Positions 25,471 to 54,211 of a stretch of 64,000 nucleotides of DNA are shown here, piece after piece. The translations under genes were made by a program, and so were the position numbers. This stretch comes from Escherichia coli (lineage in GTDB: Bacteria > Pseudomonadota > Gammaproteobacteria > Enterobacterales > Enterobacteriaceae), in assembly GCF_044647545.1 (NCBI RefSeq), contig NZ_CP172818.1. One strand, given 5' to 3'. Position 1 is the stretch's first letter. Each line of letters opens with the position of its first letter. Under the pieces are notes generated by a model that searched no databases, had not been told where the DNA came from, and saw only the letters and a list, made by a program, of their open reading frames with translations.

Positions 25471-25475
25471 TTAAT

Positions 25476-25553: not shown

Positions 25554-25560
25554 TTTCACA

Positions 25561-26253: not shown

Positions 26254-26319
26254 AATAAGTCCATTTTTAAACGTAGGGAGGCCGCCACCCACCAGGATGG
26301 AAATAGCGGCTATTGACAT

Positions 26320-27729: not shown

Positions 27730-27765
27730 TCCTTATAACGCCCCGCAGGGCGTTGTTTATTATAA

Positions 27766-29187: not shown

Positions 29188-29199
29188 GGGCGGATGTGA

Positions 29200-31236: not shown

Positions 31237-31554
31237 AAATAATCTCCATAGAGTATAAAGCTAATATTTCATGCCATCCTGTTGTTACAGGTTTCATTAA
31301 TTAAAGATTGTGTGCTATAAATAAAACCCCATAAGTGATATATAAAAACTTTTTCAGCCCGGCGGATTGCCGCCATTTTTAACCAAAAATGCCAGTTACA
31401 ATAATAACTAACAATAAACGGAGCAGAATCCAGCCGGGAATTCCCATCCCTTTTATCAACATAGAACCGGAGGCAATCAGCAACAAAAAGACCATCACAC
31501 GGAACACTTTGACTGAAAGCGTTTATGCACATATCTCCAACAAGCGAACCGAGA

Positions 31555-31945
31555 ATCAGGAAAACAAAAAACACCAGTTAAAAAAAGAAACATCAAAATC
31601 CCCCCCCCCCGCCCCCCCCGCCCCCCTTTTTGGGGAAAAAAAGGGTCCGAGGCCCCGAATCCCCCGGGCCCAATTCCAGCATACCTACACCCCCGCCCCG
31701 CCCCCCGCCCCGCTCGCCGCTACTCGCCGATACGCCGCGACCATAACGTCAAAACGACAGACAAGAAATAAACATAAAAAAAAAAAAAAAGAAAAGGATC
31801 CCCCTACCCATTAAAAACGTACATACAAACACACAAACAAACAACAAAAAAAAAAATAACGCCCCCCCAACACAAAAAAAAAAACCCCAACAAAAAGAAA
31901 AAAAAAAAAAAAAAAAAAAAAAACACCCCCCAAAAAAAAAAAAAA
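31555..31945. other. Anomalous low-complexity tract (A+C only; homopolymer runs of C and A up to ~26 nt)
   Basis: Directly visible: CCCCCCCCCCCGCCCCCCCCGCCCCCC, AAAAAAAAAAAAAAAAAAAAAAAAAA and similar; G nearly absent for ~250 bp; no plausible coding frame. Confidence 0.9.
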
Positions 31946-32008
31946 CATAATATTTCCTGTTGTGTAAATACAACCCTAAACAATGATCTCGTTCTTTTCT
32001 TAATAAAA

Positions 32009-32920
32009 TTAATTGTGCTGCCCGTGAATATTAAAAAACAGGCGGTGCGTTTTTCCTGGTTCCAGTAATAATAAGTCGATACCTGAATTAAAGGCGTTAG
32101 GCGGGCAACTCATAGGTTCAACTGCCAGTCCCTGACGCTGTAATTTTTCTCCGCTATAAACCTGCACCCAGGGTTGATCGGAACAGAGGCTCACCGAAAG
32201 CGCCTGTTGTGGATGGGTAATGGTTATTTCCCACAGATCATTAGCGGTTTTAAAGGTATGGTCTATTTTTGTCGCGGCTATTTTTGTCGCCCGCGTGAAA
32301 TTTAAATTCAGCTCATCAACGTGGTGAAGCGTTGTCGGATTTGCGTGCTCATCGACGGCATAAACCTGTTCTGCCGGAAGCTGGAAAAGATAGTCATCAA
32401 CAGATGTTAAGTTGCAGGTTAAATAAGGATGAATACCCACACCATAAGGTGCGGTCACAGTACCAATATTCTGGCTTGCGATCTCAACGGAAAGGCCCGT
32501 GCGAGCGTTGAGCGAATAAACAACCTGCGAAGCCAGCATAAACGGATAGCCGTAACTGGGCGGCAGAAAAGCTGTCAGGGTAACGCTGGTGGCGGTTAAT
32601 TCGCTAATTTGCCAGTCACGCCAGGCAAGCAGCCCGTGAATAGCGGCTTTTGAACCATGTTCATTAATGGGTAACTGATATTCCTGCCCCTGATAGCGAT
32701 AACAGCCGTTGGCGATCCGGTTCGGCCACGGAATAAGCACTTTACCCAGATGCGCCAGCGGCATCTCTTCGGGTTTGTGCGGGATGACTAAATGACAACC
32801 CTGAAAGGTTAATTCAGCCAGACCAGCACCAACCGTCACGATAGTCGCGTGATAATCCCCCGCGGCAAGTGAAACGGTTTGTCCACTGCAATGCATGTTG
32901 GTGATTTGCATACGAGGCAC
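32009..32920 (-). CDS. yihR: Aldose 1-epimerase family protein (sulfoquinovose mutarotase) YihR
   Basis: 303 aa ORF; synteny between yihQ and yihS. Confidence 0.85.
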   Translation of the reverse strand: MPRMQITNMHCSGQTVSLAAGDYHATIVTVGAGLAELTFQGCHLVIPHKPEEMPLAHLGKVLIPWPNRIANGCYRYQGQEYQLPINEHGSKAAIHGLLAWRDWQISELTATSVTLTAFLPPSYGYPFMLASQVVYSLNARTGLSVEIASQNIGTVTAPYGVGIHPYLTCNLTSVDDYLFQLPAEQVYAVDEHANPTTLHHVDELNLNFTRATKIAATKIDHTFKTANDLWEITITHPQQALSVSLCSDQPWVQVYSGEKLQRQGLAVEPMSCPPNAFNSGIDLLLLEPGKTHRLFFNIHGQHN

Positions 32921-32978
32921 CTTTATTGAATAACGACATACCCGGCATGTAGCCTGATATGCCGTTATTTCAGCTCAG

Positions 32979-34220
32979 TTATTTCGCATTCACGTCCAGC
33001 AGACCCGCCGCAACTGCCGGAGCCAGGCCTGGCGCTAACGGGATACGCGGGATCACCAGGCAATGCAGCAGGTGATAAATATCCTGTTTGCCGTCCCAGA
33101 CTTTGGTGGTGACCTTATTGTCCGCATCCAGCTCCTGCCACCAGGAACCATTTTCATAGTCCATCAGGTACTTAATGCAGTACTCCCACCATGTCTGATA
33201 CCAGGTTTCGTACTGGCGATCGCCGGTGACGGTGTAGAGCGCGTAAGCCGTACCCATCGCCTCGACGATAGGCCAACGCACACGTTCGCGAACGACCGGT
33301 TTTCCTTCCCAGTCAACGGTATAAACAATCCCGTCCGCACCATCGGGCGCCCAGGCATCGCGCACGGTGGCGTTGAACAGACCTTTGGCATCTTCTAACA
33401 GCCAGGCTGGCGGCTGTTCGCCGCGGGCTTCCAGGGCGGCATGGATGTGCAGCATTAAACGACCCCACTCGATCCAGTGGCCTGGCGTGCCTCCGAATGC
33501 GCGGAAGCGGTGCGCCGGGTTATCTTTGTTGTAATCCGGCAGCGGATTCCACTGGGTATCGAAGTGCTCGTTAACGCGATAATGATTATTTCTGGCGACG
33601 TCGTGGATAATGACGGAAGCCACGCGAATCGCGCGATCCAGCCATTTTTTGTCATGGGTGACGTCATAGACAATCAGGAAGGCTTCCACCGCGTGCATAT
33701 TGGCATTGCCGCCGCGATACTCTTCGGTTTTGCTGAAGGCTTCATCCCAGGACTCCAGGCACATCTGCTCTTCTTCGCTCCAGAAGTATTTCTCGATAAT
33801 TTCAATGGTGTAATCGAGCAGCTTGCGCGCTTCCGGGTGACCCGTTGTGACGGCACTGGCGGCACCCAGCAGGGCAAAGAAATGTTGATAGCCCTGTTTG
33901 GAGGCATCCACCACGCCCTCGTCATTCACACAGGCATACCAGCCGCCATATTTTTTATCGCGCAGTGCGCCATTCATGGCTTTGATACCGTGATCAACCA
34001 ACGAGTAAGCGCCAGGGCGGCCCATCGCCGCAGCAACGGAATAAACGTGCAGCATACGGGCGGTGATCCACAGATGCGTGCCCATCTCTTCTTTGATTTG
34101 CCCTTTATTGCCCAGCCAGCCAAAGCCAGTCGGCACCACGGCATTCTTACCAAAATCAAAGATGCGATCGGTTTCCTGTTCCAGCCAGCGGTTGTGACTT
34201 AAGGTGTTAAACCATTTCAT
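32979..34220 (-). CDS. yihS: Sulfoquinovose isomerase YihS (N-acyl-glucosamine 2-epimerase fold)
   Basis: 413 aa ORF, length and synteny match. Confidence 0.88.
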
Positions 34221-34235
34221 TTTTGTATCCCCATC

Positions 34236-35114
34236 TTAACGGCGTTTAGCCATCATTTCGTCGACGATATCGCCAAGTTGTTGTAATTTCGGTGCGCAAA
34301 CGTCACGCAGCATCAGCTCGTTGTCTGGTAAACCGACAACCGATGCCCAGACGGCACGACCAGCCAGGAAGCCCGATGCACCCGCTGTCATTGCCACGCG
34401 TACGGCACGCGGGAACAGTTTTTCGTCGACACCGGAAGAAAGTATCACCCACGGCATATTGATATGGTCATTCAGACGTTGTGAAGCACTGAGAAGCTCT
34501 TGTTGCGGACCTTTACCGTAAAGCGGCATTTCAACTTTGTAGAGGTCAGCGCCACTGTCGCCCAGCTCTTTGGCAGCATCGATGATCGCTTGTTCGCGAT
34601 CGAATTTATCGCCACGACGTGGTGGGCGGACGACTGGCTCAATAATGCTTACCAGGCCGTGTGAGTGGCACAGTTCGTTAAACTCTTTCACCATATCCAG
34701 ACGTTGCTGCGCATCTTCATCACTACGCCACAGCACCAGCAGTTTTAAGGCTTTGCCACCGTCTTGTTTGATTTGTAGCGGATTGATTTTGCGGTCAATG
34801 ACCACGCTATCTACCGGAATACCGTTGCCAGGAATGAACTCATCGGCGGCGACAATCATGGCGCAACTTTTGGCAATCGCGTTTTGCTCAACCACCTGGC
34901 GGTAACAGAATTGTTGATCTACCAGAATCGCCGAGGCATAAGGCGAGAGGGTCTTCGCCGCGTTAACTTTGAAATCAGTTAAAACGCTATCGGCTACCGG
35001 AGCGGGTGCGCCAGCCGCGGCAAACATCATGCGCATGGCTTCGCGCTGATCGACCGCCAGCATGGCAAAACCGCCCGATGCGCGCGTAATGTCGTTGATG
35101 GTGTACTTATTCAT
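34236..35114 (-). CDS. yihT: 6-deoxy-6-sulfofructose-1-phosphate aldolase YihT
   Basis: 292 aa ORF, class I aldolase-like; synteny. Confidence 0.88.
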
Positions 35115-35137
35115 TCATTTATTCCTTTATCCAGTCG

Positions 35138-36034
35138 TTACATTTTTACTTTGGCAGTCATCCCGGCACTGACACGGACCTGTTCCAGAATGGCGGACCA
35201 GTCCTGGCGACCGCGACCCGCTGCGCGCGCCTGGCTATAAACCTCCCGTGAGGCGGCCCCCAGCGGCATTGGCACATGCAGCTGGTTGGCGACATCAAGG
35301 GCGATACCAAGATCCTTATGGGCAAGATCGATCATGAAGGCGGGAGAAAGATCCCCGCTGAGGACTTTGTTTGGCCAGGAAGTGGTGAAGTGGCCTTTAC
35401 CGGCGGCGGTACCGCTCATCACCTTGACGGCAACATCGAAGGGAAGATTCAGGGCTTCGCACAAAACGGCGGCTTCTGCCGAAAGCGCATTGAGCGCGAT
35501 GCTCATGTAGTTGTTGATGAGCTTAACGCGGATCCCCATGCCCGGACCGCCCGCGTTGATCAACTCACTGCCCATCGCCATCAGGATCGGTGTGGCGCGT
35601 TCAACTTGTTCAGCGGTGCCGCCAGCCAGCAGTAACAGAGTACCGGTAATGGCATTTGCAGAAGTACGGCCTACCGGAACATCCATCATGCTGAAGCCTC
35701 TGGCCTGCATATCAGCAATCAATTTATCGGTTTGCAGTGGGTGGATGGTCGACATATCAATGACCAGCGCATCGGAAGATAAGCTCTCACAGACACCGTT
35801 TTCACCGAACAACACGTGACGCACCAGATCGCCATTCGGCAACATGGTAATGATAAATTCGGCACCTTTAGCGGCCTGCGCCGGGTTGGCGGCGGGAGTC
35901 GCACCTTTGTCTACCAGATGCCGCACAGCTTCGGCGTTCACATCAAAGACGCGAAGTTGATGCCCTTGCTGCAATAAATTGCTCGCCATTGGCGAACCCA
36001 TTTGCCCTAAACCGATAAACGCGATTGCTGCCAT
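35138..36034 (-). CDS. yihU: 3-sulfolactaldehyde reductase YihU (NAD-binding beta-hydroxyacid dehydrogenase family)
   Basis: 298 aa ORF, N-terminal Rossmann motif [10 protein letters not shown]. Confidence 0.9.
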
Positions 36035-36195
36035 AACCCTCTCCTGAATACAGTAATGTCACTTTTTGTCATTTATGACATGCCTTGCTTGTCTGTTTTT
36101 GATCGTATTTGTAATTTATCGTCAAAAAATTGACAGCCGTCACTTTTTAAACAATTGGTGAAATTAAAATGAACGCATCCCAAAATGCTTAAGGA
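36035..36195. promoter_or_regulatory. Divergent yihU/yihV promoter region with repeated TGTCA/TGACA half-sites (candidate CsqR operator)
   Basis: TGTCACTTTTTGTCATTTATGACATG (36056-36081) and TTGACAGCCGTCACTTTTT (36130-36148) contain direct and inverted TGTCA repeats. Confidence 0.5.
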
Positions 36196-37098
36196 ATGAC
36201 CATGATTCGTGTTGCTTGTGTAGGAATTACCGTGATGGATCGCATCTATTACGTGGAAGGATTGCCGACGGAGAGCGGTAAATACGTGGCGAAAAATTAT
36301 ACGGAAGTTGGCGGCGGGCCAGCGGCTACAGCAGCAGTTGCGGCGGCCAGACTAGGTGCGCAGGTCGATTTTATTGGTCGCGTCGGTGACGACGACACAG
36401 GCAACAGCCTGCTGGCAGAGCTGGAATCCTGGGGCGTTAACACCCGTTATACCAAACGGTATAACGAGGCGAAATCTTCGCAATCCGCCATCATGGTGGA
36501 TACCAAAGGCGAGCGGATAATCATTAACTACCCCAGCCCGGACTTGCTGCCTGACGCAGAGTGGTTGGAGGAAATTGATTTCTCTCAGTGGGATGTTGTG
36601 CTGGCGGATGTACGCTGGCACGAAGGTGCTAAAAAAGCCTTCACCCTGGCCCGGCAGGCGGGCGTGATGACTGTTTTGGACGGGGACATTACGCCGCAGG
36701 ATATCAGTGAGCTGGTGGCATTAAGCGATCATGCGGCCTTTTCAGAACCGGGTCTGGCGCGCTTAACGGGGGTGAAAGAGATGGCCAGTGCGCTAAAACA
36801 GGCACAAACGCTCACAAATGGTCATGTCTATGTGACCCAGGGCAGTGCAGGCTGTGACTGGCTGGAGAATGGCGGGCGACAGCATCAACCGGCCTTCAAA
36901 GTTGATGTGGTAGATACCACAGGAGCGGGTGATGTTTTTCACGGCGCATTGGCGGTGGCGCTGGCAACAGGTGGGGATTTAGCGGAGTCAGTCCGCTTCG
37001 CCAGCGGAGTAGCGGCGTTGAAATGCACGCGTCCCGGTGGACGAGCCGGGATCCCTGACTGTGATCAAACCCGATCTTTTTTGTCACTTTTTGTATAA
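36196..37098 (+). CDS. yihV: 6-deoxy-6-sulfofructose kinase YihV (PfkB/ribokinase family)
   Basis: 300 aa ORF; GG motif near N-terminus, C-terminal DTTGAGD motif. Confidence 0.9.
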   Translation: MTMIRVACVGITVMDRIYYVEGLPTESGKYVAKNYTEVGGGPAATAAVAAARLGAQVDFIGRVGDDDTGNSLLAELESWGVNTRYTKRYNEAKSSQSAIMVDTKGERIIINYPSPDLLPDAEWLEEIDFSQWDVVLADVRWHEGAKKAFTLARQAGVMTVLDGDITPQDISELVALSDHAAFSEPGLARLTGVKEMASALKQAQTLTNGHVYVTQGSAGCDWLENGGRQHQPAFKVDVVDTTGAGDVFHGALAVALATGGDLAESVRFASGVAALKCTRPGGRAGIPDCDQTRSFLSLFV

Positions 37099-37107
37099 AA
37101 TGCCAGG

Positions 37108-37917
37108 GTGATGGTTTTTCGAGGAATTTTCATGAGCCTTACCGAACTAACCGGTAACCCGCGGCACGACCAACTCCTCATGCTGATCGCCGAGCGTGGG
37201 TATATGAATATTGATGAGCTGGCAAATCTGCTGGATGTCTCCACGCAGACGGTCCGCCGGGATATTCGTAAATTAAGCGAGCAAGGACTGATTACGCGCC
37301 ATCACGGTGGCGCGGGTCGGGCCTCCAGCGTCGTTAATACGGCGTTTGAGCAGCGTGAGGTTTCGCAAACTGAAGAGAAAAAAGCGATTGCCGAAGCGGT
37401 GGCAGACTATATTCCTGATGGATCGACAATATTTATCACCATCGGTACGACTGTTGAACATGTTGCCCGGGCGTTACTTAACCACAATCATTTGCGGATA
37501 ATCACCAACAGCCTGCGTGTGGCGCATATTCTTTACCACAACCCGCGCTTTGAAGTGATGGTGCCTGGCGGAACGCTGCGTTCCCATAACAGTGGGATCA
37601 TTGGCCCTTCAGCGGCGTCCTTTGTGGCCGATTTTCGCGCCGATTATCTGGTAACAAGTGTAGGCGCAATTGAGAGCGATGGCGCGTTGATGGAGTTTGA
37701 TGTAAACGAAGCTAACGTGGTGAAAACGATGATGGCGCACGCGAGAAATATTCTGCTGGTCGCCGATCACACTAAGTATCATGCTTCGGCGGCGGTTGAA
37801 ATTGGTAACGTGGCACAGGTTACCGCGCTCTTTACCGACGAGCTGCCGCCCGCTGCGCTAAAATCACGCTTACAAGACAGCCAAATTGAAATCATCCTTC
37901 CCCAGGAAGACACGTAG
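37108..37917 (+). CDS. csqR: DeoR-family repressor of the sulfoquinovose operon, CsqR (YihW)
   Basis: 269 aa ORF, N-terminal HTH and DeoR C-terminal sugar-binding domain; true start probably internal. Confidence 0.88.
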   Translation: MMVFRGIFMSLTELTGNPRHDQLLMLIAERGYMNIDELANLLDVSTQTVRRDIRKLSEQGLITRHHGGAGRASSVVNTAFEQREVSQTEEKKAIAEAVADYIPDGSTIFITIGTTVEHVARALLNHNHLRIITNSLRVAHILYHNPRFEVMVPGGTLRSHNSGIIGPSAASFVADFRADYLVTSVGAIESDGALMEFDVNEANVVKTMMAHARNILLVADHTKYHASAAVEIGNVAQVTALFTDELPPAALKSRLQDSQIEIILPQEDT

Positions 37918-37994
37918 AATTTTGTGACCGTTGACCTGCCTTCATACCTGGCCACATAGCCAAACCCATCCTTTCCCGCTACAGTTAATTTCTT

Positions 37995-38615
37995 GTGGCG
38001 CGAAAGGAGGCAAAAATGCTCTATATCTTTGATTTAGGTAATGTGATTGTCGATATCGACTTTAACCGTGTGCTGGGGGCCTGGAGCGATTTAACGCGTG
38101 TTCCACTGGCTACGCTTAAGAAGAGTTTCCACATGGGCGAGGCGTTTCATCAGCATGAGCGTGGGGAAATTAGCGACGAAGCGTTCGCAGAGGCGCTGTG
38201 TCATGAGATGGCCCTGCCGCTAAGCTATGAGCAGTTCTCCCACGGTTGGCAGGCGGTATTTGTTGCGCTACGACCGGAAGTGATCGCCATCATGCATAAA
38301 CTGCGTGAGCAGGGGCATCGCGTGGTGGTGCTTTCCAATACTAACCGCCTGCATACTACCTTCTGGCCGGAGGAATACCCGGAAATCCGTGATGCTGCTG
38401 ACCATATCTATCTGTCGCAAGACTTGGGTATGCGCAAACCTGAAGCACGAATTTATCAGCATGTTTTGCAGGCAGAAGGTTTTTCACCAGACGATACGGT
38501 CTTTTTCGACGATAACGCCGATAATATAGAAGGAGCTAATCAGCTAGGCATTACTAGTATTCTGGTGAAAGATAAAACCACCATCCCGGACTATTTCGCG
38601 AAGGTGTTATGCTAA
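37995..38615 (+). CDS. yihX: HAD-family alpha-D-glucose-1-phosphate phosphatase YihX
   Basis: ORF contains HAD motif I ([14 protein letters not shown]) and motif IV (FFDDNADNI). Confidence 0.88.
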
Positions 38616-39481
38616 AAACCATTCAGGACAAAGCCAGGCATCGTACCCGTCCACTATGGGCCTGGCTAAAACTACTCTGGCAACGCATTGATGAGGACAA
38701 CATGACAACCCTGGCAGGTAACCTTGCCTATGTGTCGTTGCTCTCATTAGTGCCGCTGGTTGCCGTTGTTTTTGCGCTTTTCGCCGCTTTTCCCATGTTT
38801 TCCGACGTCAGCATTCAGTTGCGTCACTTTATTTTTGCCAACTTTCTGCCTGCTACTGGCGATGTTATTCAGCGGTATATCGAACAATTTGTTGCCAATT
38901 CCAACAAAATGACCGCCGTCGGGGCGTGCGGGCTGATCGTCACGGCGTTATTGTTGATGTACTCCATCGATAGCGCGTTGAATACCATCTGGCGCAGCAA
39001 ACGAGCGCGACCAAAAATTTACTCGTTTGCCGTGTACTGGATGATTTTAACGCTGGGGCCGCTGCTGGCAGGGGCCAGTCTGGCGATCAGTTCCTATCTG
39101 CTCTCCCTGCGCTGGGCGAGCGATCTCAATACTGTCATCGACAACGTGCTGCGTATTTTTCCGCTGCTGTTGTCGTGGATCTCCTTCTGGTTGCTGTACA
39201 GCATTGTTCCTACCATCCGCGTACCTAACCGCGACGCGATTGTCGGCGCGTTTGTCGCTGCACTCCTGTTCGAAGCAGGAAAGAAAGGTTTCGCGCTTTA
39301 TATCACCATGTTCCCGTCATATCAGCTCATTTACGGCGTGCTGGCGGTGATCCCCATTCTCTTTGTCTGGGTCTACTGGACATGGTGTATCGTCTTGCTT
39401 GGCGCGGAAATTACTGTCACTCTCGGGGAATACCGCAAATTAAAACAAGCTGCTGAACAAGAAGAAGACGACGAACCATGA
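38609..39481 (+). CDS. yihY: YihY/BrkB-family inner membrane protein
   Basis: 290 aa polytopic membrane ORF; synteny. Confidence 0.85.
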
Positions 39482-39915
39482 TTGCATTAATTCAACGCGT
39501 AACCCGTGCCAGCGTCACCGTGGAGGGAGAAGTGACGGGCGAAATTGGCGCGGGACTTTTGGTGTTATTGGGTGTCGAAAAGGATGACGACGAACAGAAA
39601 GCAAACCGTCTGTGCGAGCGTGTGCTCGGCTACCGCATCTTTAGCGATGCCGAAGGCAAGATGAATCTCAACGTGCAACAGGCGGGCGGCAGTGTACTGG
39701 TGGTTTCCCAGTTTACTCTCGCCGCAGATACCGAACGGGGGATGCGCCCAAGTTTCTCCAAAGGCGCATCACCGGATCGCGCAGAGGCGTTATATGACTA
39801 TTTCGTCGAACGCTGCCGTCAGCAAGAGATGAACACGCAAACAGGACGCTTCGCTGCGGATATGCAGGTATCGCTGGTCAATGATGGCCCCGTGACATTC
39901 TGGTTGCAGGTATGA
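39478..39915 (+). CDS. dtd: D-aminoacyl-tRNA deacylase
   Basis: 145 aa [40 protein letters not shown]..., conserved SQFTL motif. Confidence 0.93.
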
Positions 39916-40901
39916 GCCAGCTTCCAGGGTTGTCACGGGAAACAAGAGAGAGTATCGCTATGTATCACCTTCGGGTTCCACAAACAGAAGAAGAATTAGA
40001 GCGTTACTATCAGTTTCGCTGGGAAATGTTGCGTAAGCCCCTGCATCAACCGAAAGGTTCGGAACGCGACGCGTGGGATGCGATGGCGCATCACCAGATG
40101 GTCGTCGACGAGCAGGGTAATCTGGTGGCGGTAGGCCGACTGTATATTAATGCCGACAATGAAGCGTCCATTCGCTTTATGGCCGTTCATCCCGACGTGC
40201 AGGACAAAGGGTTAGGAACGCTGATGGCGATGACCCTCGAATCTGTGGCGCGTCAGGAAGGTGTTAAGCGCGTGACCTGTAGCGCCCGCGAAGACGCGGT
40301 GGAGTTTTTCGCCAAGCTGGGGTTTGTTAATCAGGGAGAAATCACCACGCCAACCACCACGCCGATTCGCCATTTTTTGATGATTAAACCCGTTGCCACT
40401 CTGGATGATATTTTGCATCGCGGCGACTGGTGCGCGCAGCTGCAACAGGCGTGGTATGAACACATCCCGCTGAGTGAAAAAATGGGCGTGCGCATTCAGC
40501 AATATACCGGGCAAAAATTTATCACCACCATGCCGGAAACAGGCAATCAGAATCCGCATCACACGCTGTTTGCCGGGAGTTTATTCTCGCTGGCAACGCT
40601 CACCGGTTGGGGGCTTATCTGGCTGATGCTGCGCGAACGCCACCTCGGCGGAACGATTATTCTGGCGGATGCGCATATCCGCTATAGCAAGCCGATTAGC
40701 GGCAAACCTCATGCGGTAGCCGACCTTGGTGCCTTAAGCGGCGATCTCGACCGTCTGGCGCGTGGACGAAAAGCACGGGTGCAGATGCAAGTAGAAATCT
40801 TTGGCGACGAGACGCCGGGTGCAGTGTTTGAAGGCACGTATATCGTTCTGCCCGCGAAGCCATTTGGCCCGTATGAAGAGGGCGGGAACGAAGAAGAGTA
40901 G
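39912..40901 (+). CDS. yiiD: GNAT acetyltransferase / thioesterase fusion protein YiiD (FabY)
   Basis: 329 aa ORF with GNAT region ([15 protein letters not shown]) followed by hotdog-like C-terminal domain. Confidence 0.85.
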
Positions 40902-40904
40902 CGT

Positions 40905-41729
40905 TGGCAGGTGCATTGCACTCCTTGCCCCTGTCATGCGGTGATACAACGCTTCACCTTCATCGCAAAGTGGGTCGTATTCAGCGGTAATGATATGTAC
41001 AGGTGGCAAGCCATTGAAATCATCGCGCCAAAGAGGGCTGGCTTCAGGATGCCTGCGTTCAATGCCTGGCAGGTACATCTCAAAGCCGCTCAGTAAAGTG
41101 TCGCGTGTGATGATGTAATCGTGACGATTGCGTATGTAGCTTTCGAAATGCGCAGTCGCATCAAGCATGGGATAAATTAAGATGACCGAGTTGTGCCGGT
41201 TGCCACTCGCCAGCACGCTTTAATCGCAAAGCAGTTACCAGCGCCAGATGTCCGCCCGCACTGTCACCGGCAAGAGTTATCCGTTGTTTATCAACGCCGA
41301 GTCGTTCGGCGTGTTGCCGACTGAATTCTGCACCTCGTTGCGCATCATCATGGGCGGCGGGGAAAGTATGTCCGGTGCCAGCCGATACTGGACGGCAATA
41401 ACCCGACATTGCCCGTAATAGGCTAACTGGCGCAGCTGGTTGTCGTGAGTTGCGAACCCGCCGCTAACAAAACAGCCACCGTAGTAATAAATTATCGTCG
41501 GGAGTAATGTCGGGGCATTCAGCGGTGACACTATTCGTAAGGTCATCGCTTCAAGTTCGATAGTCTGAATATCTACCCGCGTTTCTGTCTCACCCGCAAG
41601 GACAGCGCTGGCGATATAGCCCTCCCTGCGCTGCGCAATACTTTGTTGACGCGATGAGGGGCGACCCGCAGCGATAAACTCTTCGACTAACTCTGCAATT
41701 CCTTTTTCAGTGCCATAGTAGAACTCATT
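40905..41729 (-). pseudogene. Decayed alpha/beta-hydrolase (hormone-sensitive-lipase family esterase, Aes-like) gene remnant
   Basis: Minus-strand fragments in three or more frames: ..IIYYYGGCFVSGGFATHD.. (oxyanion-hole region), ..ITLAGDSAGGHLALVTALRLK.. (GDSAG nucleophile elbow), ..HIITAEYDPLCDEGEALYHRMTGA.. (acid-residue region); no single frame covers the gene and the 3' end runs into yiiD. Confidence 0.6.
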
Positions 41730-41945
41730 TTGCTGTATGAATGTACAGTTTTATACACCCGTTTTTACTGGATGGATACAGGGAAATTCACGGGCGTGAA
41801 AAATCTGGAAAGCGCCTCGCAAATGTAAAGACAAACCCGGCAGAGATGTGGTTTTGCTGGAGCACTATCAGTAAGCTAGTGGTTTCAAGGGTACGTCAAT
41901 GACGTACAGAAGGGGTTTATTTATCTAAGCCAATGGCGTATAATT

Positions 41946-42256
41946 ATGCTCTTCATCGAAACGGAAATTTTTACTGAAGATGTTCAAAAACTGCTGACCG
42001 ACGATGAATTCAGTCGTTTTCAGTTTTTCCTGGCCTTGAATCCTGACTATGGTGAGGTAATACCTGAAACTGGTGGGTTAAGAAAGGTTCGATGGGTGTC
42101 AGGAGGAAGGGGAAACGTGCTGGTGTCAGGGTTATTTACTTTCATCAGGTTAAACATTATGAGATCAGATTACTGCTTATTTATCGTAAGGGTATTAAAG
42201 ATAATATCTCTCCCCAGGAAAAAGCAATGCTCCGGTTGTTAAATACGAGGTGGTAA
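41946..42256 (+). pseudogene. RelE/ParE-superfamily (HigB-like) toxin with an internal frameshift
   Basis: Frame 1 gives MLFIETEIFTEDVQKLLTDDEFSRFQFFLALNPDYGEVIPETGGLRKVRWVSGGRG..; the +1 frame continues ..GKRAGVRVIYF..EIRLLLIYRKGIKDNISPQEKAMLRLLNTRW and stops at TAA directly abutting the antitoxin ATG. Confidence 0.6.
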
Positions 42257-42547
42257 ATGGATAAGGCACTTTTTGAGCGGTTGACTCACAGCATGGCCCA
42301 GATGAATGAAATTATTGAAGGAACGCGACAGCCTTCGCGGACTTTTGAAGTTGATGCTATGAAAATCAAAGAAATACGCCGCGCTTCAGGGTTGTCACAA
42401 TCTAAATTTGCCGATCTTATTTCTGTAAGCGTAGACACGTTGCGTAACTGGGAGCAGGGGCGACGTTCGCCGACCGGGCCTGCAAAGGCTTTGCTGCGAG
42501 CGATTGCCAATGATCCGCAACATGTGCTGCAAGCACTTAACCGTTAG
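42257..42547 (+). CDS. HTH (XRE-family) HigA-like antitoxin
   Basis: 96 aa ORF with HTH region IRRASGLSQSKFADLISVSVDTLRNWEQGRRSP; translationally coupled (TAAATG) to the upstream toxin frame. Confidence 0.7.
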   Translation: MDKALFERLTHSMAQMNEIIEGTRQPSRTFEVDAMKIKEIRRASGLSQSKFADLISVSVDTLRNWEQGRRSPTGPAKALLRAIANDPQHVLQALNR

Positions 42548-43150
42548 AGGCATGGTTATGCCATACAGAAAGCACCAGCATTCAGAACTCCTGTGAAAGC
42601 GGCGTAGTGCCACCTGCTCAGGAGTTTTGCTATGACCCGTAATCAGTGCTGACCGTTGCCACCCTATGATGCGATTAAAAAAACTCATCGTCGCGCCGAT
42701 GATTGACGTCAATGCTATCGGATGATACCGGGGGTGTTCCAGAAAGATCCAACTTTCCCGAACTGTTACCAACAAAATTATAACGATGAGCAAGTTAAGA
42801 CCGGTTGGTAGCAGTACTGACCGGTCTGTGATGGATGATTAATTTCACCTTAAATCCGGGTGCTGTTAGGATGCTGACATTTTTCGGCTACACCATTCAG
42901 ATTATGCAAATAAAGATCCAATCAAAAAATAAACATCCCTGTATATAATATATTTATAGCACCCATATCTCATCCTGGGCGATAACCCAACCATTTTTGA
43001 TTAACAAATGAAACAACTGCAACGTTCTTATTATTTCTGGAAAACGTCTCGCAAAAACAAAACAGCATGCAAAAATCCGCTTTTTTTAAATGATTTTTCG
43101 GCGTAATTTTCGCACATACATTAATGAGTAATATATGTAAGGTATTGGTA

Positions 43151-43369
43151 ATGGCGATGAATACGGTTTTTCTTCATTTATCAGAAGAGGCAATTAAACG
43201 GCTGAACAAGCTTAGGGGCTGGCGTAAGGTTTCACGATCTGCAATTTTACGCGAAGCGGTTGAGCAATATCTGGAGCGGCAGCAATTTCCGGTGCGTAAA
43301 GCAAAGGGTGGCAGGCAAAGGGGGGAGACAGTAGTTGTTGATGATCAGTGTAAGGAGCATAAGGAATGA
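43151..43369 (+). CDS. yiiE: Ribbon-helix-helix (CopG-like) small regulator YiiE
   Basis: 72 aa from MAMNTVFLHLSEEAIKRLNKLRGWRKVSRSAILREAVEQYLERQ inside ORF 43124..43369. Confidence 0.75.
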   Translation: MAMNTVFLHLSEEAIKRLNKLRGWRKVSRSAILREAVEQYLERQQFPVRKAKGGRQRGETVVVDDQCKEHKE

Positions 43370-43578
43370 CAAAAAATTTATTATTCTTGAATATAAAAAC
43401 CAGATGCCCTTATTCTGGTATTAATACAAGGCTGTTTTACTTGAACTTATAATAACTGCAACTGTTACATCATATCTGGAAAACGCCTCGCGAAATACGA
43501 GAGTTTGGAATAGCAGGTGTCGTCATACCCTATGAACTGTAATCCGGGCGACCAGCGCCACCCGGAAAACGTCAGAGA

Positions 43579-44508
43579 TTACTCCCCTTCACCCGGAAAC
43601 AGGAACGGGTTGATGGAACTACGGGCATAGCCTTCTTGCTCCATTCGCGCGTCCAGTACCAGAGAGGCGAGGTCATCTGCCACGGCTTCAACTTTCGGTT
43701 CTTTTTCCTGATAAAGAATCTTCAGGTAAGTGCCGCAGTCATCGCAGCTTTCGGCTTTAATCGCGGCCTGTTCGTCATCCAGCGACCAGTAATGCAGTTT
43801 GCCGCTTTGTTCACAGTTGCTGCATTTTACGCGTACTACGTGCCATTCAGTTTCACACAGGTTGCAGTGCAGGTAACGCAGCCCCTGAGTGGTGCCAATT
43901 TGCACCATGCTGGACACCGGCATAGAACCACAAACCGGGCAATATTGACGTTGTTCGCCATATTCCGCACGCGCTTTGCCGGGGATCAGATTGGCCATCT
44001 GCGCCCAGTAGAGCGACAGTGCAGCCCAGATAAACGGCGCTTTATCGCTGCTGACGGACGAGAAATCAGAGGCAAACAGTGCGCTGGCCATATCTTCCAG
44101 CTCCTGAGTCGATGCCTTCTCCAGATTCTCAATCACTGCCAGCGCCGGGCCGCTCATTTCAGGTTTCAGCTCAGCAATCAGCGCCATCAGCAGCTTTTGC
44201 CAGTGCTTATCACGCGGCAGAACGTGAATATCCAGCGGGGGCTTGCCTTGTGCGCTGGCTTCTTTAATGCGCGTGGTCAGATCCATCTCCAGCGGATGGT
44301 CGTACAGCACCACTTCCTGGGCGTGGGCGATAAGCGCAGCAAAGCGCAGGTAATCACCCAGCGGATTATTTTCTGCCAGCTCGCGCAGACGCTCGGCGCG
44401 GCGGTTGTATAAATTCTTGAGCCGAGGGAACAATAACGGCGGAATCATATCCGCCGTACGTTTCTCGCTCGAACCCAGCTCATCTTGCGGGATTATGCGA
44501 ATACTCAT
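43579..44508 (-). CDS. fdhE: Formate dehydrogenase accessory protein FdhE
   Basis: 309 aa ORF with CxxC pairs ([23 protein letters not shown]). Confidence 0.93.
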
Positions 44509-45140
44509 TCAGCTTTCTTTTCCGTTGTCTTGCGGACCTCACGGTACCAGCGCGGGTGATGTTTCTTCGCCCAGGCGCTGGTAACCCATCCTTCCACCAT
44601 GGCGGTAATCGTGCCTTTCACCCAAAGGGCGGCGTAGATATGCACCATGATAACCACAATTAACGCCACTGCGGCAAATGAATGCAGCATTAACGCGAAT
44701 CGGATCACCGGGATTGAGAAAGCAGGTGCAAAATAAGGACGCCAGATAATCACGCCGCTCACCAGCAGCAGAACCAGGAAAATAATCGCCGCCCAGAAAA
44801 CGCATTTCTGACCGAAGTTATAACGCCCGGTGTCACCTACTTCCTCGTTGACGACGATCTTACGAATATTCTTCGCCCAAAAGATATCATCCCGATTGAT
44901 TAGGTTGTGATGCCAGTAACGGAAAAACATGATGATGAACGAGGCAAACATAACCACGCCGACAAACGGGTGCAGAATGCGCGCCAGCTGCGGTGTGCCC
45001 ATGATTTGCATCAACCAGTTGAAGGACGGGAACAAAAAGCCCAGCCCGCTCACCGCCGCCAGGATGAAGCAGAAGGCGGTGATCCAGTGGTTGATACGTT
45101 CCGGCGCGGTGTAGCGCACGATGGTGTCACGTCGTTTCAT
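44505..45140 (-). CDS. fdoI: Formate dehydrogenase-O cytochrome b556 subunit
   Basis: 211 aa membrane ORF with conserved His ligands; overlaps fdoH stop. Confidence 0.92.
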
Positions 45141-46039
45141 TTGCGCTCCTCGTCTTTCTCTTCGTGCAGATTATTCTCTTCCTCATCCGCACGGTTCGGA
45201 CCGACACCCACGTAGTGGAAGATACTGGCCGCAAAGGTAGCCGCAAAGCCAACAGCCGCGAGCGGTTTCCAGATGCCTTTCCAGAATTTCACGGTTTCGC
45301 TGATTTCCGGGTTCTCCGGCAAGCCATGATACAGATTTGGCTTGTCAGCATGGTGCAGCACGTACATAACATGTGTACCACCGACGCCTGCCGGGTCGTA
45401 CAAACCCGCATTGTCGTAACCACGGGTTTTCAGCTCCGCCACGCGCTCGCTCGCCAGCGTTTTCATCGACTCTTTCGTACCGAAGTGAATCGCGCCCGTT
45501 GGGCAGGTCTTCACGCAGGCCGGTTCTTGCCCAACCACCACGCGGTCAACGCACAACGTACATTTGTAGACGCGGTTGTCTTCCGGGTTGAGGCGCGGAA
45601 TGTCGAACGGACAGCCCGCAATGCAATAACCGCAGCCGATGCACTGCTCGGACTGGAAGTCGACGATACCGTTGGCATACTGAATAATTGCCCCTTCCGC
45701 CGGGCACGCTTTCAGGCAGCCTGGATCGGAACAGTGCATACAGCCGTCTTTGCGGATCAGCCATTCCAGTTTGTCGTTCTGCTCCACTTCCGAGAATCGC
45801 ATCACCGTCCACGATTTGGCACTTAAATCATTGGGGTTGTCGTACACCCCAATGTTATTGCCGACGGTATCGCGAATGTCGTTCCACTCTGAACACGCCA
45901 CCTGACAGGCTTTACAGCCGATACAGGTGGTAACGTCGATGAGTTTCGCCACTTCTTCCTGGAAGTCCCGCGCCTGAGGCGCGGGGGTCAGACCGTTAGT
46001 CGCGGAACGACGAATGATATCTTGCGATTGATAAGCCAT
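45137..46039 (-). CDS. fdoH: Formate dehydrogenase-O iron-sulfur subunit
   Basis: 300 aa ORF with four ferredoxin-type Cys clusters (CIGCKAC.., CMHC.., CIGCGYC.., CTLC..). Confidence 0.94.
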
Positions 46040-46051
46040 ATGTCGTCTCCG

Positions 46052-49000
46052 TTACACCTTTTCCACATTCACAAGGAAGGACTTAAACTCCGGCGTCTGC
46101 GTGTTCGCATCACCCACGAATGGCGTTAACGTATTGGCAATAAAGCCTTTTTTCGCAACGCCTTCATAGCCCCAGTGAATCGGAATACCGATGGTATCGA
46201 TATCTTTGCCGTTCGCTTTCAGCGTGCGAATACGTTTGGTCACCACCGCTTTGGCTTTGATATAGCCACGGTTGGAGGAGACTTTCACAGTATCGCCCTG
46301 GGCAATGCCAAGTTTATTCGCCAGCGACTCCCCGATTTCCACAAACTGCTCTGGTTGCAAAATCGCATTCAACAGCGCGTGTTTGGTCCAGTAGTGGAAG
46401 TGCTCGGTCAGACGATAGGTGGTTCCGACATACGGGAACTTATCGGCTTTACCCAATGCTTCGGCGTCGTCTTTAAAGATACGCGCAGCCGGGTTCGAGA
46501 TAACGTTTGGATGCAGCGGGTTAGTTCCCAGCGGCGTTTCAAACGGCTCGTAGTGTTCCGGGAACGGACCTTCCGCCATCTTATCGAGGGCAAACAGACG
46601 TCCCATGCCTTCCTGCTGCATGATAAACGGCCCTACGCCGCTGCCCGGAGGCGCTGCGCTGTAGTCCGGAATATCCCAGCCGGTCCACTTAGTGCCGTCC
46701 CATTTCAGCAACTGACGCTTCGGATCCCATGGGTTACCCTGCGGATCTGCGGAGGCGCGGTTATACAGAATGCGGCGGTTAAGCGGCCATGCCCATGCCC
46801 AGCCCAGCGTGTTACCGAGGCCAGACGGATCGGCGTTATCACGACGCGCCATCTGGTTACCTTCTGGCGTCCAGCTACCGGCGAAAATCCAGCAGCCACA
46901 GGAGGTCGTACCGTCATCGCGCAGTTGGGCGAACGAGCTAAGTTGTTGGCCTTTCTTGACGATAACCGCACCGGTTGCCGGATCGGTAATATCGGCCAGC
47001 GCCTTACCGTTGCTCTCCATCGCCACTTCTTCCGACTTCGGCTCATGCGGAATGGCGTAGTTCCAGGTCATATTCAGCACCTGGTCCGGGTTTGCGCCAC
47101 CCTGTTCGGCATACATCTTGCGCAAGCGCAGGAAGATACCGGAGAGGATCTCGCCATCAGTCAGCGCAATCCCTGGGGCGTCCGCACCTTTCCAGTGCCA
47201 CTGTAACCAGCGACCGGAGTTAACGATTGAACCGTTCTCTTCTGCGAAGCAAGTCGATGGCAGACGGAACACTTCGGTCTGGATCTTCGACGAGTCAACT
47301 TCGTTCAGCTCACCGTGGTTCTGCCAGAAGTTAGAGGTTTCAGTGTTCAGCGGGTCGATGGTGACGAGGAACTTCAGTTTCGACAGACAGCCGATCACTT
47401 TGTTTTTGTTCGGGAATGAGGCAACAGGGTTAAAGCCCTGGCAGATATAGCCATTGACCTTGCCCTCTTTCATCATCTCGAAGTATTGCAGGACGTCGTA
47501 GCCTTTATCCCACTTCGGCAACCAGTCAAAGCCCCAGTTATTTTCCGCCGTCGCTTTATCACCAAAGAAGGCCTTCATCATGGAGACGAAGAATTTCGGG
47601 TAATTGCCCCAGTAGTTAACCTGGCCTTCCAGCAGTGGTTTCGGCGTGTTGGCGGTAAGGTAAGTTTGCAGATCGGTCTGCTTCTCGCTTGGCAACGTCA
47701 TGTAACCTGGCAGACTCTGCGACAGCAGCCCCAGGTCGGTCAGCCCCTGAATATTGGAGTGACCGCGCAGGGCGTTAACGCCGCCGCCAGCCATCCCCAT
47801 ATTGCCGAGCAGCAGCTGGATCATCGCCATCGTACGAATGTTTTGCGCACCAATGGAGTGTTGCGTCCAGCCGAGGGCGTAGAGGAACGACGCTGTTTTA
47901 TCGTGAGCACTGGTTTCGGCGATGTATTCGCAGACTTTCAGGAACGCGTCTTTTGGCGTACCGCAGATGTTTTCAACCACATCTGGCGTATAACGGGAAA
48001 CGTGCTGTTTCAGCAAGTTCCACACGCAACGTGGATGTTGCAGCGTGGTATCGCGTTTGGCGAAGCCGTTTTCGTCCAGTTCGTAAGTCCAGGAGGATTT
48101 ATCGTACTTGCGTTTTTCCGCGTCGTAGCCGGTGAACAGGCCATCTTCAAAGCCGTAATCCTCACGCACGATCAGGCTGGCGTTGGTATAGGCTTCGGTG
48201 TATTCGCGGTTGAATTTTTCATTGTTCAGCAGGTACAGCAATACGCCTGACAGGAAAGCAATGTCAGTCCCGGAACGAATAGGGGCATAGTAGTCAGCCA
48301 CCGCCGCCGTACGTGTAAAGCGAGGATCGATCACAATCAGCTTCGCGCCGTTGTGAATTTTGGCTTCCATCGCCCAGCGGAACCCGACCGGGTGAGCTTC
48401 AGCGGCGTTACCGCCCATCACCACGACGAGGTTGGCATTCTTGATGTCGACCCAGTGGTTGGTCATCGCACCGCGACCAAATGTTGGAGCAAGACTTGCT
48501 ACCGTTGGTCCGTGTCAGACACGCGCCTGGTTGTCGACCGCGAGCATACCCAGCGCGCGGGAGAATTTTTGCGTTAAATAGCCGGTTTCGTTACTCGACG
48601 CGGAAGCACACAGCATCCCGGTGGAGAGCCAGCGGTTAACAGTCACGCCTTCGGCGTTTTGCGCAATGTAGTTCGCATCGCGGTCTTCTTTCATCAGTTT
48701 GGCGATGCGATCAAACGCCTCTTCCCAACTGATTTGTTGCCATTTATCAGAACCTGGCGCACGGTATTCCGGAAACTTCAGGCGGCTTTCGGAGTGGATG
48801 AAATCCACCAGGCCAGCGCCTTTCGGACAAAGTGCTCCGCGGTTGACCGGGTGATCCGGGTCACCTTCGATATGGAAGATAGATGCTTTGGCGTTTTTTG
48901 CTCCGTCACCGAGGCTGTACATCAACAGCCCACAGCCTACGGAACAATAGGTGCAGGTATTACGGGTTTCGCGGGTGCGCAGCAGTTTATACTGCCGGGT

Positions 49001-49102
49001 TTCCGCGAGTGCTACGCTGGGTGCAAAACCCAGTGCCGCTGCCGTGGTGCCTGCCATACCGCCAGCGCAGATCTTAAAGAACTGCCTTCTGCTGACCTGC
49101 AT
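46052..49102 (-). CDS. fdoG: Formate dehydrogenase-O major (molybdopterin/selenocysteine) subunit; in-frame TGA at 48515-48517 read as selenocysteine
   Basis: ORFs 48515..49102 (Tat signal RRQFFKICAGGMAGTTAAALG) and 46052..48466 are in the same frame, separated only by one TGA; combined length ~1016 aa. Confidence 0.93.
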
Positions 49103-49295
49103 GGATTGCTCCTTGTTTCGACATTGTCACGTCCCATTTACATTCGCTTGCTGCGTGTGCAGGGAGTGGGAGTTATTTTTCTTTGCGGAAGGGGCCGCAA
49201 AGGTCCAGAATTGGCTCAATTTCCCTCCATCCAGGAAGGGTTTGTAACAGAATACCATAATGTTGGTGTGTGTGTTCTTATCTGGTTAAGAGAAA

Positions 49296-50129
49296 GTGAA
49301 AAAAACACAGCAAAAAGAAATCGAAAATGTGACAAGTGTCACAGGTGTTCGTCAAATTGAGTTATGGCGGCGTGATGATTTACAACACCCACGGTTAGAT
49401 GAGGTGGCGGAAGAGGTTCCCGTTGCGCTGGTCTACAACGGCATTTCGCATGTAGTGATGATGGCGTCACCCAAAGACCTTGAGTACTTTGCGCTCGGTT
49501 TTTCGCTTTCCGAGGGGATTATCGAAAGTCCGCGCGATATCTTCGGTATGGATGTCGTTCCTTCCTGTAATGGTCTGGAAGTGCAAATTGAGCTTTCCAG
49601 CCGCCGCTTTATGGGGTTGAAGGAGCGTCGCCGGGCACTGGCGGGACGTACGGGATGTGGCGTGTGCGGCGTGGAGCAACTTAATGACATCGGAAAACCG
49701 GTGCAGCCGCTACCGTTCACCCAGACGTTTGATCTCAACAAACTGGATGATGCATTACGTCATCTCAATGATTTTCAGCCAGTGGGGCAACTGACCGGTT
49801 GTACTCACGCCGCCGCCTGGATGTTGCCATCTGGCGAACTGGTCGGCGGGCATGAAGACGTGGGTCGCCATGTGGCGCTGGACAAACTGTTAGGCCGCCG
49901 GTCACAAGAAGGGGAAAGCTGGCAGCAAGGTGCGGTGCTGGTTTCCAGCCGTGCCAGTTATGAAATGGTGCAAAAGTCAGCGATGTGTGGCGTAGAGATT
50001 TTGTTTGCGGTGTCTGCCGCGACCACGCTTGCCGTAGAAGTGGCTGAGCGCTGTAATCTGACACTGGTAGGTTTTTGTAAACCGGGTCGGGCAACGGTTT
50101 ATACCCATCCGCAGCGTTTGAGCAATTAA
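49296..50129 (+). CDS. fdhD: Sulfurtransferase FdhD (formate dehydrogenase maturation)
   Basis: 277 aa ORF; synteny divergent from fdoGHI. Confidence 0.92.
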
Positions 50130-50281
50130 TTAAAATAAGTCCTGCGAGATATATTAAATTGCAGGACTTATTCATTTCGTGAATTTTATTATTTTATTTA
50201 TAAACAAAACGCGTGTAGTGGCGTTTTCTTTTTTCATTTATTATGTTCACTCTCTTATCTATATATTTATAAGGCAATTAA

Positions 50282-51337
50282 ATGAAAAGGAATTTATTAT
50301 CTTCCGCTATTATAGTCGCCATCATGGCCCTCGGTCTCACGGGTTGTGATGATAAAAAAGCCGAAACAGAAACGCCCCCGCCTGCCAATAGTCAACCTGC
50401 CGCACCAGCTCCTGAAGCGAAACCTGCTGAAGCTCCCGTTGCAAAAGCAGAAGTTAAACCTGAAACGCCTGCCCAACCGGTGGTCGATGAACAAGCGGTT
50501 TTCGACGAAAAAATGGATGTCTATATCAAGTGCTACAACAAGTTACAGATCCCGGTACAGCGCAGTCTGGCGCGTTATGCTGACTGGCTGAAAGATTTTA
50601 AACAGGGGCCTACCGGTAAAGAGAGTACTGTTTATGGCATCTACGGCATTAGTGAATCCAGCCTCGCTGAGTGTGAAAAAGGCGTAAAAAGTGCTGTGGC
50701 GTTAACGCCTGCGCTGCAACCTATTGATGGCGTAGCGGTGAGTTATATCGATGCTGCCGTGGCGTTGGGTAATACCATTAACGAAATGGATAAATATTAC
50801 ACCCAGGAAAATTATAAAGACGATGCGTTTGCGAAAGGGAAAACGCTGCACCAGACATTCTTAAAAAATCTGGAAGCCTTTGAACCTGTAGCCGAATCTT
50901 ATCATGCGGCGATCCAGGAAATTAATGATAAGCGTCAGCTTGCGGAACTGAAAAATATTGAAGAAAGAGAAGGGAAAACATTCCACTACTATTCTCTGGC
51001 AGTCATGATTTCAGCGAAACAAATTAATAACCTGATATCGCAAGAGAAGTTTGATGTTGATGCGGCAATGAAGAAAGTGTCTGAACTGGAAACGCTGGTG
51101 GCGCAGGCCAAAGAAGCGGATAAAGGCGGCATGAATTTCTCGTTTATTAATTCGGCAGGCCAGTATCAACTCGAGGCTAAAAAATACGTTCGCCGCATCA
51201 GAGATAAAGTCCCGTACTCTGACTGGGATAAAGAGCAACTTCAGGACGCAAACTCAAGCTGGATGGTCGAAGACTCTTTCCCGAGAGCATTACGCGAGTA
51301 CAACGAAATGGTCGATGATTATAATCGCCTGCGTTAA
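50282..51337 (+). CDS. yiiG: Lipoprotein YiiG (DUF3829)
   Basis: 351 aa ORF, lipobox LGLTGC, Pro/Ala-rich linker. Confidence 0.85.
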   Translation: MKRNLLSSAIIVAIMALGLTGCDDKKAETETPPPANSQPAAPAPEAKPAEAPVAKAEVKPETPAQPVVDEQAVFDEKMDVYIKCYNKLQIPVQRSLARYADWLKDFKQGPTGKESTVYGIYGISESSLAECEKGVKSAVALTPALQPIDGVAVSYIDAAVALGNTINEMDKYYTQENYKDDAFAKGKTLHQTFLKNLEAFEPVAESYHAAIQEINDKRQLAELKNIEEREGKTFHYYSLAVMISAKQINNLISQEKFDVDAAMKKVSELETLVAQAKEADKGGMNFSFINSAGQYQLEAKKYVRRIRDKVPYSDWDKEQLQDANSSWMVEDSFPRALREYNEMVDDYNRLR

Positions 51338-51386
51338 ACGTTTTTGATGATAAATGCAGTGTCGGATGCGGCGCATCCGACACAGT

Positions 51387-53135: not shown

Positions 53136-54211
53136 TAATCCACCTGACGGAACTGGCTAAACGCGTTGACTTTCTCCGCGGTTAAGGTGGTCAGAAAATC
53201 CCTTATCAACGTGAGCAGAGCATCGTAATCGGCTTTTGAAATCATACCGCTATTGGCGTGCAGATAACGCGTTGGCAGACACAGCGCGACAACTGGACGC
53301 CCGCCGCCCATCACGTTGTAGCGCCCGCCATCCGTCGCTCCGGTTTTCATGGTGGAAAATTGCAGCGGTAAATCGTTATGTGCGGCACAGCTTTTTAACG
53401 CCGCCACCAGTTTCTGGTTGGGGAAGTAGCGCTTGTCAAACAGCATCAGCCCCGGCCCCTGGCCCAGTTTCAGCGGGTATTTTATGTTATCAATGCCCGG
53501 AACATCGCCCGCTACGGCGGTATCCAACACGATCACGACGTCCGGTTTAATGTGTTCCGCCGAGGTTTGTGCCCCGCGTAGCCCAACTTCTTCTTCCACG
53601 CTGCCGACGCCATACAGCGTAATTTCGGGGTTATTTACTGTCTGTAGTAGCTCAGCCATCATCGCGCAGCCGATGCGGTTATCCAGCGCCTTGCCGACCA
53701 CTTTATCTTCGCCCCAGCAGGCAAAATTGGCTTCCGGGCTAATAAAATCGCCAATTTCCACGCCGCGCTTTTCCACCTCTTCGCGACTGTTCGCGCCAAT
53801 ATCAATGAACATCTCATCAAATGACAGCGGTTGTTGCTTTTGCTTTTCGGTTAACGCATGAGGCGCGACGGAACCAATCACACCAGGGATTTTCACTCCC
53901 TTGTGTGTGCGTATGGTTACCCGGTGGTTGAGCATCGACTGATTCCACCAGCCACCAATGGTGGTGAAACGCAAAAAACCGCTCTCGTCGATGTGGGTGA
54001 CCATAAAGCCGACTTCATCCATATGCCCGACAACGGCAACTTTTGGCCCTTTATTCCCCTTACGGGCAACAAAGCTGCCCAGACCATCAAAGGTGATCTC
54101 ATTAACGCAAGGTTCCAGCGTGTTTATCAGAATGTCGCGAACTTCCTGTTCATCGCCGCTGACGGCGCTGGCTTCGCACAACTGTTGCAGTAACTCAATG
54201 TTCATGGACAA
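53135..54211 (-). CDS. frvX: M42-family aminopeptidase/cellulase-like protein FrvX
   Basis: 358 aa ORF; synteny. Confidence 0.88.
   Translation of the reverse strand: MSMNIELLQQLCEASAVSGDEQEVRDILINTLEPCVNEITFDGLGSFVARKGNKGPKVAVVGHMDEVGFMVTHIDESGFLRFTTIGGWWNQSMLNHRVTIRTHKGVKIPGVIGSVAPHALTEKQKQQPLSFDEMFIDIGANSREEVEKRGVEIGDFISPEANFACWGEDKVVGKALDNRIGCAMMAELLQTVNNPEITLYGVGSVEEEVGLRGAQTSAEHIKPDVVIVLDTAVAGDVPGIDNIKYPLKLGQGPGLMLFDKRYFPNQKLVAALKSCAAHNDLPLQFSTMKTGATDGGRYNVMGGGRPVVALCLPTRYLHANSGMISKADYDALLTLIRDFLTTLTAEKVNAFSQFRQVD

Follow-up and report, generated by a model that had tools for sequence, protein, structure and literature searches.

Between fabY (yiiD) and yiiE, the window analysed here (the whole 64,000-nucleotide stretch of Escherichia coli contig NZ_CP172818.1) carries a disrupted esterase sequence on the minus strand and, beside it, the genes of a type II toxin-antitoxin pair on the plus strand (Table 1). 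Three overlapping minus-strand open reading frame (ORF) fragments lie between fabY and the toxin-antitoxin pair and match consecutive parts of the Pfam profile Abhydrolase_3 (PF07859): the ORF at 41277-41546 matches profile positions 1-43 (E 7e-12), that at 41161-41409 positions 43-103 (E 2e-15), and that at 40734-41216 positions 100-196 (E 1.7e-20). The presence of a broken esterase ORF in the deposited sequence is real and far beyond chance, and a sequence-only reading of this DNA had rightly recognised a hormone-sensitive lipase (HSL)-family esterase on this strand and had placed and described it accurately.

Table 1. Genes, esterase segments and lesions between fabY and yiiE (positions in the window; lesions relative to the intact orthologue)
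Feature	Position	Strand	Remarks
fabY (yiiD), intact	39912-40901	+	stop TAG 40899-40901; annotated fabY in orthologous loci
Esterase remnant, HSL/family IV, Abhydrolase_3	40902-41716	-	from Pfam, DNA alignment and tblastn map
Esterase segment 1	41708-41716	-	aa 1-3
Esterase segment 2	41373-41708	-	aa 4-115; holds YGGCF
Esterase segment 3	41190-41371	-	aa 116-177; holds GDSAG
Esterase segment 4	40932-41185	-	aa 178-262; holds DPLCDEG
Esterase segment 5	40898-40930	-	aa 262-272
-1 G	~41708		codon 3/4, in CTGGAAAAAGG, beside AAAAAGG run
-1 A	~41372		GGAAC to GGAC
+C/-T pair	41319-41323		ELVW to EFSR
+4 nt	41184-41189		insertion relative to the intact orthologue
G to C missense	41126		Gly to Arg
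+1 G	40928-40931
160-bp deletion junction	40898-40902		between two GTAG copies (4-bp microhomology, 40898-40901)
Esterase-toxin patch	40894-42753		1,860 bp with 31 alignment columns that differ, mainly by indels
HigB-2-like RelE/ParE-family toxin gene, frameshifted	41946-42256	+	in the same low-quality patch
NadS-family HTH antitoxin, intact	42257-42547	+	Pfam HTH_3; one substitution at 42469
yiiE (CopG/RHH regulator), intact	43124-43369	+	in error-free stretch 42754-43503, where K-12 homology has resumed

The lesions were mapped against the intact 302-residue orthologue of ST648-type E. coli (a 909-bp gene, L001:3116-4024, minus strand). The five segments into which the remnant falls have codon starts at coordinates that give 1, 2, 0, 2 and 1 modulo 3, amounting to three frames, and the hallmark motifs that the earlier reading had listed (YGGxF, GDSAG and DPLxDEG) are all present across them, as YGGCF, GDSAG and DPLCDEG. 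The nucleophile elbow GDSAG (GxSxG) corresponds to residues 151-155 of the orthologue and lies in the frame of the ORF at 41161-41409; the motif of the catalytic Asp is likewise kept. The catalytic His motif HGF (residues 277-279 of the orthologue, with His277) falls in the missing 160 bp, and the window has no HGF. At the oxyanion-hole position (window ~41470-41485) the window copy and the intact orthologue alike read Y-G-G-C, retaining the GG core of the H-G-G-G found in the esterases Est8 and PestE, without the flanking His and the third Gly.

The orthologue, WP_001318161.1, is annotated as an alpha/beta hydrolase and occupies the same fabY-yiiE locus in ST648-type strains and in many other E. 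coli, with orientation and neighbours as in the window (fabY on one side; higB-2-like, nadS and yiiE on the other). The locus query is covered over at least 80% of its length by megablast in 2,614 of 5,426 complete E. coli genomes, and the exact intact protein is present on at least 1,000 contigs. These copies are uninterrupted; the one in the window is broken by six frame-disrupting indel events and ends 30 codons early, without a stop. The intact protein matches Abhydrolase_3 almost from end to end (E 4.7e-69, positions 1-209 of 210). Its nearest solved relative is Est8 (PDB 4YPV, E 8.5e-51), followed by PestE (2YH2, E 2.4e-50) and EST2 (1EVQ, E 2.3e-43); E. coli Aes (4KRX, E 5.1e-29) is more distant. 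The protein is a paralogue of Aes and not Aes itself. It keeps the GDSAG, DPLxDEG and HGF motifs of family IV esterases, with YGGC in place of the canonical HGGG(A) oxyanion motif, and it reaches the cut-off of none of the NCBIfam HSL models (LipP1 comes closest, with 238.8 bits against 350). This E. coli esterase may represent a distinct, uncharacterised HSL subgroup. The names on the protein records ("alpha/beta hydrolase", "acetyl esterase") are automatic. The esterase is a known, ordinary accessory gene of E. coli, predicted from its motifs and profile matches to encode a family IV/HSL carboxylesterase.

Relative to this orthologue the window copy is indeed multiply frameshifted, with six frame-disrupting indel events (-1, -1, a +1/-1 pair, +4 and +1) and a 3' deletion; the additional shift that had been expected near the AAAAAGG run is the first of the two -1 events. 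Three of the indels lengthen or shorten a short mononucleotide run, and the +4 insertion and the +C/-T pair are not of the homopolymer kind. Once the indels are removed, the window and orthologue DNA are identical except for one isolated substitution and the 5-nt cluster of the +C/-T pair, giving a spectrum of about seven indel events to a single isolated substitution. The 160-bp deletion takes out codons 273-302, the stop codon and the entire 63-bp spacer up to the fabY stop codon, which the remnant now abuts; the truncation that had been suspected at the end of yiiD is therefore present in the record.

The adjoining toxin gene is affected as well. It carries a -1 in an AAA run at ~42107 and three clustered substitutions at 42203-42208 (DDLS to DNIS), as compared with an intact 103-residue orthologue that is named HigB-2 or RelE/ParE by different sources, is present as the exact protein on at least 1,000 contigs and has no Pfam match. 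The antitoxin scores 60.7 bits against the NCBIfam NadS model, with a cut-off of 60. Thus, the esterase does lie next to a toxin-antitoxin module, as had been stated, but the module had been taken as intact, and in the window only the antitoxin is whole while the toxin is frameshifted.

The lesions are private to this record. None of the 5,426 complete E. coli genomes shares the esterase lesions or surpasses the intact ST648 form, the best match to the patch at 98.4-98.5%, and none crosses the deletion junction in one piece. The 30-mer that spans this junction has no match among GTDB representative genomes or the scanned metagenome contigs. At the +4 site, a gapped pattern that accepts both forms found the intact form in 10 of 10 metagenome contigs, and the exact 144-residue frameshift product is present on one NCBI contig only. 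Two metagenome contigs of the same 90% protein cluster (L003 and L004) are free of every lesion they cover; the -1 at ~41708 lies beyond both of them, and the 160-bp deletion lies beyond L004 as well. These two members of cluster P0002 had been candidates for further broken copies and were rejected as such; they are short metagenome contigs of intact sequence, L003 containing a run of N.

The lesions are set in flanks that are nearly perfect. In a comparison of the whole window with the ST648-type E. coli FDAARGOS_497 (NZ_CP033850.1), there are only six differences in 55,833 aligned bases outside five patches, and four of these are in the multicopy 23S rRNA. Positions 2945-18567 show no mismatch and one gap, 18571-22236 no difference at all, and 43507-55500 100% identity; 31937-40901 has three mismatches to an ST648-type sequence (L006), all at the far edge. 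The excess of differences in the esterase-toxin patch over the DNA outside the five patches is 155-fold (Poisson P ~2e-56). Odd clusters of substitutions occur in this patch at 41909-41923, 42203-42208 and 42741-42753, and the next lesion, a small one at 43504-43507, lies at the yiiF breakpoint. Natural divergence in this window is, by contrast, biased towards substitutions: the window differs from K-12 by 137 mismatches and no gaps over 6.7 kb in one segment, and by 272 mismatches and three gaps over 7.9 kb in a second.

Other patches of the window are worse, contrary to the earlier statement that the density of lesions at the esterase is far above that elsewhere. At 31300-31945, a gene of the TauE/SafE sulfite-exporter family, which lies between yihQ and yihR in ST648 and has no counterpart in K-12, degrades progressively: the sequence is correct at the start, then shows dropouts, and finally gives way to long poly-A and stretches like CCCCCCGCCCCCCCCGCCCCCC; in all, ~340 bp are missing, and from 31945 the identity is suddenly 100% again. 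At 56253-57143, a carbohydrate-porin gene (between frvA and rhaM in ST648, none in K-12) decays through base dropouts into ~600 nt of G/A-rich noise, with ~850 bp missing relative to ST648, and is then followed again by sequence of 100% identity. These two patches are base-calling or assembly junk and cannot be biological. A further low-quality patch, likewise junk rather than mutation, covers 58425-58721 in the REP/BIME array that separates rhaD from rhaA; single bases drop out there in series (G first, then T), and the repeat copies are arranged differently from those of ST648.

The position of these patches tracks homology to K-12 MG1655. This homology breaks at 31254|32018, 40902|42750, 43495|43516 and 56235|57152 and at the REP array 58349-58733, and all error patches fall inside such structural differences between K-12 and ST648, in DNA that K-12 MG1655 lacks. 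The esterase patch coincides with 40903-42749, a segment without K-12 homologue, its left edge lying within one base of the K-12 breakpoint and its right edge within four. fabY is the last high-quality, K-12-homologous DNA ahead of it; K-12 homology ends at 40902 and the 160-bp "deletion" sets in at the very next base. On the other side, K-12 homology is back at 42750, the errors end at 42753, and 42754-43503 is free of errors.

A complementary feature is found at 22237-25587, where the window carries yihL-yihM-yihN and ST648-type genomes carry the STM4011-4015 radical-SAM cluster. Positions 23000-25499 are 100% identical to K-12 MG1655, whereas the flanks are diverged from K-12 by 2-3%, which suggests a carry-over of reference sequence, or else very recent transfer. 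No exact match to this yihLMN mosaic was found in complete E. coli genomes, the best being 99.7%. The closest relatives have chromosomes of 4.94-5.31 Mb, and the present one, at 4,499,902 bp, is ~0.6 Mb smaller. As a separate observation, yihL is apparently frameshifted by a 1-nt deletion at 22601, its ORF encoding 167 instead of 236 residues.

As the error patches are confined to non-K-12 DNA and yihLMN is identical to K-12, the simplest reading would be a K-12-guided assembly. The esterase "pseudogene" is very probably a sequencing or assembly artefact, judged from comparisons of the deposited sequence, with the gene intact in the strain; the frameshift of the HigB-2-like toxin beside it is most probably an artefact, too. 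The strain is ST648-like (phylogroup F-type), and its chromosome as deposited seems to rest on a K-12-like backbone, such that DNA shared with K-12 would be accurate and DNA that K-12 lacks would have been filled with low-quality sequence, probably from untrimmed or single-pass reads or from a weak local assembly. The yihLMN genes, probably absent from the strain, would then have been carried over from the K-12 reference, and artefacts would include all of the frameshifts, the clustered substitutions and the +4 insertion as well as, probably, the 160-bp "deletion", which lies at a contig or patch boundary. In the organism itself, both genes, esterase and toxin, would most likely be intact.

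Several properties of the record are those of a known class of artefact, in which reference sequence is carried over and low-quality reads are left untrimmed. In this class, error patches are confined to insertions relative to the reference, as they are here; sequence decays progressively to homopolymer noise and returns abruptly to perfect quality, as in the junk patches of the window; and segments identical to the reference occur where the nearest relatives differ, as with yihLMN, the smaller chromosome being consistent as well. The esterase patch is unlike the junk of this class in being much cleaner. Its error rate of ~1.7% is far below that of the junk patches and not obviously progressive, so another cause is possible for this patch. 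Nor was the yiiF segment of K-12 carried over, and a simple model in which the reference is kept wherever reads are lacking is thus incomplete and does not explain everything.

It is unlikely that only part of the damage is artefactual, with one or two lesions being real (for example a single frameshift or the 160-bp deletion) and the others being errors over a region of low coverage. The deletion has a clean junction with microhomology, unlike the ragged junk patches, and real deletions often have microhomology, like the 4-bp GTAG here; the lower error rate of the esterase patch would also fit. However, the deletion begins where K-12 homology ends, that is, at the edge of the low-quality patch, which is the placement expected of a mis-join, and its junction was absent from all searches of complete E. 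coli genomes, GTDB representatives and metagenomes.

The sequence-only reading had proposed instead that the gene is genuinely decayed, a notion that would have esterase and toxin eroded in the strain through frameshifts and a microhomology-mediated 3' deletion. In its favour, the deposited sequence does have a broken esterase ORF, the deletion has its GTAG repeat, three of the indels belong to a common class of spontaneous mutation in short mononucleotide runs, and the gene is accessory, with at least 80% query coverage in only 2,614 of 5,426 genomes; real pseudogenes accumulate in accessory islands, too. Against this stand ~52 kb of single-copy flank that are essentially without substitutions relative to genomes with the intact gene. 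With divergence this close to zero, seven or more independent neutral lesions would not have had time to build up within 0.8 kb. Moreover, the indel-to-substitution ratio of ~7:1 is the reverse of natural divergence, the odd changes are equally dense in intergenic DNA and in the toxin gene and end within four bases of the resumption of K-12 homology, no lesion is held in common with any other genome, metagenome or protein record searched, and the sister patches are sequencing junk. With lesions that are private to one assembly, mostly indels and bounded by the K-12 breakpoints, with undiverged flanks and junk in the sister patches, genuine decay is unsupported and must be considered quite improbable.

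Alternatively, the lesions might be real and reflect a burst of localised, indel-biased mutagenesis in a very recent ST648-like lineage, a reading that we consider very improbable. Such a burst, for instance from error-prone repair round a break, would have been confined to the non-core fabY-yiiE island and would have inactivated both the esterase and the HigB-2-like toxin while leaving more than 50 kb of flanking DNA unchanged. If true, this would be an unusually local and indel-dominated mutational burst, contrary to the evidence.

Three further candidates were rejected: a Shigella or divergent Escherichia source (identity to ST648-type genomes is ~100%, and the sequence is free of IS elements), import by recombination of an old pseudogene allele from another E. 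coli lineage (no genome of the collection fits the patch better than ST648, and the substitutions are too few), and systematic nanopore or methylation-motif error (the contexts of the lesions have no motif in common, and the +4 and +C/-T changes are not homopolymer errors). The best match of only 97.4% for 22000-40900 results from the replacement between yihLMN and STM4011-4015 and from paralogous yihO/yihP alignments, and not from divergence of the lineage.

An assembly artefact, the preferred explanation, has consequences for how such loci are read. A multiply frameshifted pseudogene of textbook appearance near a toxin-antitoxin module is here best explained by the quality of the record, and this assembly would yield wrong counts of pseudogenes, wrong rates of accessory-gene decay and wrong inferences on toxin-antitoxin loss; in automatic annotation, a gene that thousands of related genomes keep intact would be split or dropped. 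The sequence-only reading had called for tblastn mapping of the frameshifts and for comparison with intact orthologues at fabY-yiiE; the lesions could be mapped in this way, and the gene is intact elsewhere. It had further held that a single-frame alignment after correction of at most one homopolymer error would indicate an intact, mis-sequenced gene. Six frame corrections are needed, yet mis-sequencing is still the best explanation, and allowing for one homopolymer error was therefore too narrow.

Some minor differences were noted elsewhere in the window and at the fabY-yiiE site. In the glnL-glnA intergenic region (glnZ/REP area, 18558-18571), the window lacks 34 bp relative to ST648 and ~148 bp relative to K-12; a 1-nt gap adjoins this breakpoint, and the record differs there from both. 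yiiE is present and yiiF absent in both the window and ST648; K-12 has an extra ~600 bp with yiiF, and where this extra DNA sits (43495-43516) the window shows a 5-nt loss and a substitution. The spacer between fabY and yiiE is hypervariable, with at least three unrelated contents (window 40902-43123; L019:41440-42291; L005:34174-37097): the esterase with higB-2/nadS, as in ST648 and roughly half of the E. coli genomes; in K-12, which also has yiiF at the site, ~470 bp of unique DNA unrelated to the esterase; and, in strain KE55, a partial hypothetical gene with a transposase.
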